Shown here piece by piece: positions 9,001 to 9,263 of a stretch of 64,000 bases of DNA. Position 1 is the stretch's first letter. Each line of letters opens with the position of its first letter. The DNA comes from Dictyostelium discoideum (Eukaryota): positions 512,001 to 576,000 of the forward strand of contig CM000153.2 in the NCBI GenBank assembly GCA_000004695.1, written 5' to 3'. Below the pieces are notes generated by a model. The model saw only the letters and a program-made list of their open reading frames with translations, ran no database searches and was not told where the DNA came from. The position numbers were made by a program, and so were the translations under genes.

Positions 9001-9263
9001 TTCTCTCATCACCATCCACATTACAATCAAAATTATACTCCTGAATAATTTTTTGATATTTAAAACTATATTTTGAAACGTATTCATCCTTTGAATCATA
9101 AAAAAAAGTAATATTATCCTTATTTATAATAACTTTATAAAATATTAGCAAAATTATCATTTTATTTTAAATATATGTAATTATTTCATTAATACATACA
9201 ACTAGTTTTTGAATAAACTATGGACACCAAATAAAATGTAATTAAAAAAACCAATCTTTTCAT
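6010..9263 (-). CDS. Tgr-family-like IPT/TIG-domain single-pass membrane protein (paralog of the + strand gene at 10108..12733). Signal peptide, multiple GG..I.I.G..F IPT-like repeats, a TM helix, and a ~240-aa N-rich cytoplasmic tail with tandem repeats. The reading frame is interrupted by an apparent +1 frameshift near 8093..8105, so this is a possible pseudogene or sequencing error.
   Basis: ORFs 8090..9160 and 6010..8010 are adjacent, overlap by 4 codons in different frames, and are colinear with the continuous + strand paralog (...YDRPYISSYSISNEFLTLF|GKEDSF... vs ...YDIPHIKTYSQVNNEIHIIGSCFG...). The probable true start is an upstream signal-peptide mini-exon 9263..9200 (MKRLVFLITFYLVSIVYSKTS), donor GTATGT, then a 67-nt intron to the AG at 9134/9133. 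The ATG at 9160 is probably intronic. IPT-like motifs include VVLIGTNF and AIITIIGERLTS. The TM helix is IIPVLGFLFFIGFVCFVLWFF. Confidence 0.55.

Follow-up and report, generated by a model that had tools for sequence, protein, structure and literature searches.

A likely tgr pseudogene of Dictyostelium discoideum AX4, head to head with the gene for Q54R85, and its putative signal-peptide exon

In animals, genes of secreted and membrane proteins can have a short first coding exon that carries the signal peptide, with a phase-1 intron a few residues beyond the cleavage site, and Tordai and Patthy have reportedly worked on animal signal-peptide exons bounded by phase-1 introns. The gene we describe here has the same layout, but it comes from an amoebozoan and its introns are very short and AT-rich, and we make no claim of exon shuffling for it.

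The Tgr proteins of Dictyostelium are transmembrane proteins with N-terminal signal sequences, and the tgr ('Tiger') genes occur in head-to-head pairs, with many pseudogenes in AX4 (bioRxiv 10.1101/2025.10.22.684067). Dissimilar head-to-head tgr pairs are described as duplicated in units, and tgrB2 is reported to be expressed and rapidly evolving (bioRxiv 10.1101/2025.10.22.684067). In the 64-kb stretch of AX4 DNA analyzed here (the window, to which all coordinates refer unless another locus is named), we believe with a probability of roughly 0.88 that such a gene truly begins at positions 9263-9133 of the minus strand, which hold its first coding exon and its first intron; this gene is most likely a pseudogene and is the partner of the gene encoding Q54R85. 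The sequence-only reading that first pointed to this segment had proposed the exon, its donor, the 67-nt intron, and the phase-1 join, and in the sequence all of these are correct to the base. The parts of the minus-strand gene up to its first stop are as follows.

Positions 9263-9200, minus strand: coding part of exon 1 of the Tgr gene, 64 nt, read from the sequence as 21 codons, MKRLVFLITFYLVSIVYSKTS, plus T.
Positions 9199-9133, minus strand: intron 1, 67 nt, phase 1, GTATGT...TATAAAG, 88% A+T.
Positions 8090-9132, minus strand: exon 2 up to a premature stop (TAA 8092-8090), with an N-terminal Ig-like and IPT/TIG ectodomain.

The start codon (ATG 9263-9261) has an in-frame TAA just upstream of it at 9275-9273. 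The intron opens with the donor GTATGT (9199-9194), and the single AG that it contains is its final two bases (9134-9133); donor and acceptor both have consensus-like contexts, and removal of the intron restores the frame. At the phase-1 junction the T at 9200 and the TT at 9132-9131 make a Phe codon, which is followed by IINKDNITFF, and the reading frame past the junction is IINKDNITFFYDSK..., running into the long open reading frame. The spliced N-terminus is MKRLVFLITFYLVSIVYSKTSFIINKDNITFFYDSK..., and the spliced product read to the first stop is 368 amino acids long, while with the intron retained the exon-1 frame closes five codons on (TAA 9191-9189). In a working gene, the spliceosome would excise this GT-AG intron, so that signal peptide and first Ig-like domain are joined in phase 1. 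The ATG had been placed 131 bp upstream of the start of the open reading frame, but that distance is 103 nt; exon 1 and the intron together span 131 nt. The A+T content changes in steps along the gene, from 89% upstream to 78% in exon 1, 88% in the intron and 76% in exon 2, and the corresponding values for the divergent plus-strand gene are 88%, 79%, 86% and 72%.

The mechanical open reading frame starts at another ATG, 9160-9158, which lies within intron 1, 28 nt before the acceptor. If there were no intron, translation from this ATG would give MIILLIFYKVIINKDN..., with a short hydrophobic start acting as a signal or anchor and the upstream segment left as an untranslated leader. This ATG is in frame and has A-rich sequence ahead of it, and the first eight residues of its product (MIILLIFYKV...) are hydrophobic, the Kyte-Doolittle mean reaching 2.74 in the best 10-residue stretch. 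However, the uncharged run stops at those eight residues and lacks a positively charged n-region, and the composition of the 28 nt from 9160 to 9133 is intron-like. Alignments with the family run through a signal peptide of 20-25 residues that matches the upstream exon and not ATG 9160, and the public gene model takes the upstream exon as well. The equivalent internal ATG of the plus-strand gene (10271) gives no hydrophobic N-terminus and is unused in the reference protein. We therefore consider translation from 9160 very unlikely; on the spliced reading, this ATG would be an accident, the intron happening to be free of stops in that frame. A mechanical track of open reading frames misplaces the starts of Dictyostelium secreted and membrane genes that carry the signal peptide on a tiny first exon.

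We evaluated signal peptides using simple heuristic criteria for the n-, h- and c-regions together with Kyte-Doolittle means, and it is by these heuristic criteria only that the minus-strand gene has the N-terminal signal sequence expected of the Tgr family. Its spliced N-terminus has K2/R3 in the n-region and a 15-residue uncharged run from L4 to S18, and its Kyte-Doolittle mean reaches 2.79 over the best 10 residues. The residues Val16 at -3 and Ser18 at -1 suggest cleavage after Ser18, and the plus-strand gene has the matching Ile16/Ser18. The 64-nt exon would thus encode a Sec-type ER signal peptide in which MKR is the n-region, L4 to about V16 form the hydrophobic core, and the cut follows Ser18. 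In 8-9 relatives from the family, their own Met and signal peptide align with residues 1-15 of the spliced minus-strand model.

The divergent gene on the plus strand has the same arrangement, and the following features describe it and the region between the two genes.

Positions 10108-10183, plus strand: exon 1, 76 nt, signal peptide MKIILLFVIFFLISKIFSQNLVYPI plus G, phase 1.
Positions 10184-10256, plus strand: intron 1, 73 nt, phase 1, GTATGT..TTAG, 86% A+T.
Positions 10257-12733, plus strand: exon 2, TgrI-like, with Ig_TgrO1 and TIG domains (Pfam) and a C-terminal hydrophobic anchor.
Positions 9264-10107, no strand assigned: intergenic region of 844 bp between the ATGs at 9263 (minus) and 10108 (plus), 88-89% A+T.

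The signal-peptide exon and phase-1 intron had also been proposed for this gene, and spliced in that way it gives 850 amino acids identical to EAL65799.1 / XP_639162.1 / Q54R85, an 'IPT/TIG domain-containing protein', which is 79% identical to Tiger protein I3 (TgrI3, Q54RE1). The two genes form a head-to-head tgr pair, and there is no further tgr gene in the 64-kb window. We presume that the 844 bp between them are the bidirectional promoter of the pair. This region contains direct repeats. One, about 62 nt long and with the core ATAATCnAAAAATAAATTATTAyTATAAAAATAT, occurs three times (9759-9820, 9829-9890 and 9969-10030). Another, of 34 nt, occupies 9567-9600 and 9708-9741, and part of it recurs at 9951-9974. 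These repeats are possible cis-regulatory elements. No Rfam family or tRNA was found at the site.

The 368-residue spliced product of the minus-strand gene is an exact match to UniParc UPI00004E2D19 (via MetaClust), and in a library of 1.84 billion proteins it is its own representative at 100% identity. Given this match, a gene model with exactly this exon, donor, and acceptor is already public. The description of the exon as hidden therefore does not hold, and what had been taken for the annotated start, 9160, is the start of the mechanical open reading frame only. The UniParc entry and the gene models of other genomes that agree with the splice are themselves computational predictions. An exact look-up of the 368-residue product on assembled contigs returned nothing, and the same was true of the plus-strand protein. 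A word-indexed protein search with the 203 N-terminal amino acids of the spliced product gave no matches, including none to a protein from other strains; this search missed even the exact UniParc entry, its index evidently lacking sequences found only in MetaClust, and because the exact entry itself was not returned these negatives carry little weight.

To compare intron positions, we mapped the annotated products of relatives back onto their genomic DNA, where a single intron explains each model.

L002 (the Dictyostelium firmibasis orthologue): exon of 58 nt, then a phase-1 intron of 63 nt (GTAGGT..TTTTAG).
L005 (two paralogues of D. cf. discoideum, arrayed on the same strand): exon of 70 nt, then a phase-1 intron of 98 nt.
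L006 (D. citrinum): exon of 73 nt, then a phase-1 intron of 71 nt.

Counting the two genes of the window, six gene models, drawn from four species or strains, have the intron in phase 1 and 58-76 nt past the ATG, and all of the annotated Tgr relatives that could be dissected have a phase-1 intron of 63-98 nt after a signal exon of 58-76 nt. The two proteins of the window are colinear from residue 1, with 26% identity over about 790 residues (E = 2e-51); this alignment places one signal peptide opposite the other and the two introns within one codon of each other. As a standard, tgr genes begin with a signal exon and then a phase-1 intron, and this 5' architecture is already catalogued and known. 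A recognizable exon 1 of the minus-gene lineage occurs elsewhere in D. firmibasis only, and at low identity. In other Dictyostelium assemblies, the automated models of five relatives (P0041 and P0001-P0004) have no signal peptide at their N-terminus; the P0041 model, for example, begins MLGYVIVFSNETF. Such starts reflect either missed mini-exons or real 5' truncations. For the minus-strand gene itself, the exon finding has little importance beyond correct annotation.

In DNA this rich in A+T, an upstream ATG, a hydrophobic peptide, a GTATGT and an in-frame AG might coincide by chance, and such DNA does easily encode hydrophobic runs, since codons for Phe, Ile, and Leu are abundant. We scanned both strands of the window (128 kb) for an ATG opening 15-35 sense codons that include K or R close to the beginning and 11 or more consecutive uncharged, mostly hydrophobic residues, followed by GTA[AT]GT, and found three matches, two of which are the exons heading the two Tgr genes. 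We also simulated the 300 nt ahead of the acceptor 5000 times with a first-order Markov model; a phase-compatible candidate arose in 8-10 of the simulations if any GT donor was accepted, but in none (0/5000) if a consensus donor was required. The intron is also homologous in position and phase to the annotated introns of the relatives, and the steps in A+T content fit an exon, an intron, and an exon. Coincidence is effectively refuted by the relatives' introns, the pattern scan, and the simulations; the probability that chance produced the exon-1 pattern is negligible, and as an account of the whole segment we rate it the least probable of those considered. The third match of the scan (29890-29989, plus strand) lies inside a long open reading frame (27790-31347) and probably encodes a membrane helix in a transporter-like gene, beside a real or chance donor site.

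The body of the minus-strand gene continues past its premature stop in another frame, and the remaining features of the gene are the following.

Positions 8095-8098, minus strand: site of an 11-nt deletion, the missing TGTATGGCCAA being present in the D. cf. discoideum orthologue (L001), by DNA alignment.
Positions 6010-8094, minus strand: out-of-frame continuation with the rest of the ectodomain, a transmembrane helix, and a cytoplasmic tail, by homology to P0001-P0004.

The open reading frame at 8090-9160 has a Pfam TIG match (E = 4.3e-7) and carries the TIG/Ig-like ectodomain of the family, and homologues of the gene carry PF01833/PF24612. Together with the open reading frame at 6010-8010, it makes up one gene in two frames. 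Dropping one T from the run at 8095-8098 gives a protein of 1061 amino acids with a full ectodomain and an Asn-rich cytoplasmic tail. The transmembrane helix, IIPVLGFLFFIGFVCFVLWFF, occupies residues 795-815 of this frame-corrected model (window 6813-6751), so the gene has a C-terminal transmembrane segment, but one that is out of frame with the AX4 start codon. The L001 orthologue is 87% identical over the 201-nt segment around the deletion and 81% identical over the shared gene body. The deletion takes out the G-Q-C-F part of the family-conserved motif G-x-C-[FL]-G, and G-x-C-F-G is present in P0001-P0003, P0005, and the plus-strand gene. The reading frame of the minus-strand gene is not intact in AX4, where the deletion brings in the premature TAA at 8092-8090 after residue 368, so that the only product possible from the AX4 start codon is a 368-residue fragment without the transmembrane helix. 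The minus-strand gene is most likely a pseudogene in AX4, judging by this lesion. The mirrored architecture of the pair had been said to support both gene models, but the 11-nt deletion that would make one of the two genes a pseudogene had been overlooked.

We considered two other explanations for the break in the frame. A small intron bridging 8090-8100 was rejected, as the orthologue has 11 extra coding bases there (G-Q-C-F) and no GT-AG interval of plausible size is present. A sequencing error in the T-run is unlikely, the lesion being an 11-nt deletion and not a 1-nt homopolymer slip.

Several short motifs recur in the predicted cytoplasmic tail. Between poly-Asn runs at 6154-6600 (minus strand) there are four copies of DVACSS and two of IMADQQL[RK]L[IM]NRNKKNL, and DV[AV]CSS/DLACSS is also terminal or recurrent in the paralogues P0001, P0002, and P0004. 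This conserved Cys-Ser motif of Tgr tails might be a modification or docking site.

The exon and intron may be ancestral structure in a locus that is neither transcribed nor spliced in AX4, the mini-exon then having no function, and we give this dead relic somewhat less than even odds. The frameshifting deletion points that way, as does the fate of the gene elsewhere, since it is lost, truncated, or frameshifted in ACTFIW, ACTFIZ, ACTFIY, and D. firmibasis; most tgr genes are also reported to be lowly expressed, with many pseudogenes among them (bioRxiv 10.1101/2025.10.22.684067). On the other hand, the exon-1 reading frame, both splice sites, and the 844-bp region held in common with the intact partner are all undamaged, and the mRNA of a tgrC pseudogene that contains stops and is nevertheless spliced has been reported in the family (bioRxiv 10.1101/2025.10.22.684067). 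A dead relic is compatible with our preferred reading of 9263-9133 as a real first exon and intron, and differs from it on present-day expression only. At the other extreme, the AX4 allele might still be transcribed from the presumed promoter of the pair and spliced (9200^9132), and the 368-residue product, a signal peptide with the first Ig-like/TIG domains and no anchor, might be secreted as a soluble ectodomain fragment and modulate adhesion or recognition by membrane-bound Tgr partners. We regard this as quite unlikely, though if it were true, the secreted fragment could act as the truncated TgrB2 is suspected to.

The neighbors of the Tgr pair are genes for a Mago-binding protein, a Dcp2/NUDIX protein, and beta-adaptin. 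Further along the window, exact protein look-ups, which agree with an origin in AX4, assign the open reading frame at 47359-50094 to WASH complex subunit 4 (DDB_G0283355) and that at 57125-59614 to the U5 snRNP 116-kDa subunit. In 2-kb bins, the G+C content of the window is about 13-34%, and the 4 kb at 24001-28000 are at only about 13%, compared with 17-34% in the remaining window.

The lineage of the minus-strand gene is incomplete in each of the other genomes in which we followed it. Residues 1-104 are absent from the gene in the D. cf. discoideum orthologue (L001, ACTFIY), and at another D. cf. discoideum locus (L003) the minus-type gene also begins only at residue 105. There is no minus-type gene at the syntenic locus in ACTFIZ (L007), and in the D. 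discoideum strain ACTFIW (L008) the gene is reduced to a 3' remnant. The D. firmibasis orthologue (L002) is frameshifted after residue 112. It is annotated there as two genes of 112 and 549 amino acids, with a 1-nt frame change at 5600-5665 of that locus by an A9 run after '...ATYFF', and this change may be a genuine frameshift or may come from a homopolymer error in the assembly.

Both ACTFIZ and ACTFIW carry three copies of the TgrI-like plus-strand gene, with 86-91% identity to the one in the window, and there it stands without the minus-strand partner.

ACTFIZ (L007), positions 100-2742, 7001-9645 and 12664-15714: plus-gene copies, on a contig with the WASH4/U5 orthologues.
ACTFIW (L008), positions 1-2550, 3155-5815 and 10001-12521: plus-gene copies, at the syntenic locus.

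The copy number of the pair, and its presence or absence, vary strongly among strains. With an intact TgrI-like gene beside a decaying partner, the locus is a small concrete example of the known birth-and-death dynamics of tgr genes, and we find its state more informative than its exon structure.

The mirrored architecture had also been taken to indicate a tandem-inverted duplication. This does not follow, because the architecture is found family-wide, including in the same-strand array L005, and a family trait that also occurs in same-strand tandem arrays is no evidence for a local inverted duplication of this pair, whose members are only 26% identical. The minus-type genes are 44-58% alike among themselves and the plus-type genes 60-89%, and both L002 of D. 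firmibasis and L003 of D. cf. discoideum have the same unlike partners in head-to-head order. The low identity of the partners and the repeated pairing of unlike genes would fit duplication of pairs as units, and an inverted duplication may have occurred long ago at the root of the tgr family.

Compared with Q54R85 and TgrI3, the minus-strand gene has the same order of ectodomain parts, and the signal exon (64-76 nt) and phase-1 intron (67-73 nt) lie about 3-4 residues before the first conserved block. It differs from them in having no Pfam Ig_TgrO1 match at E < 0.01, in having a transmembrane helix and a cytoplasmic tail of about 245 residues in place of a terminal anchor, and in being frameshifted. 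The pair resembles the allorecognition pair tgrB1-tgrC1 of D. discoideum, which are likewise dissimilar divergent tgr genes with a short common intergenic region, one of them tailed and the other nearly tailless, but it belongs to another subfamily and is not the tgrBC locus, one of its partners appears to be disabled, and the likeness comes from gene layout alone. Closest in condition are the tgr pseudogenes of AX4 and the truncated tgrB2, which are likewise broken before the transmembrane domain and whose presence and integrity also vary among strains.
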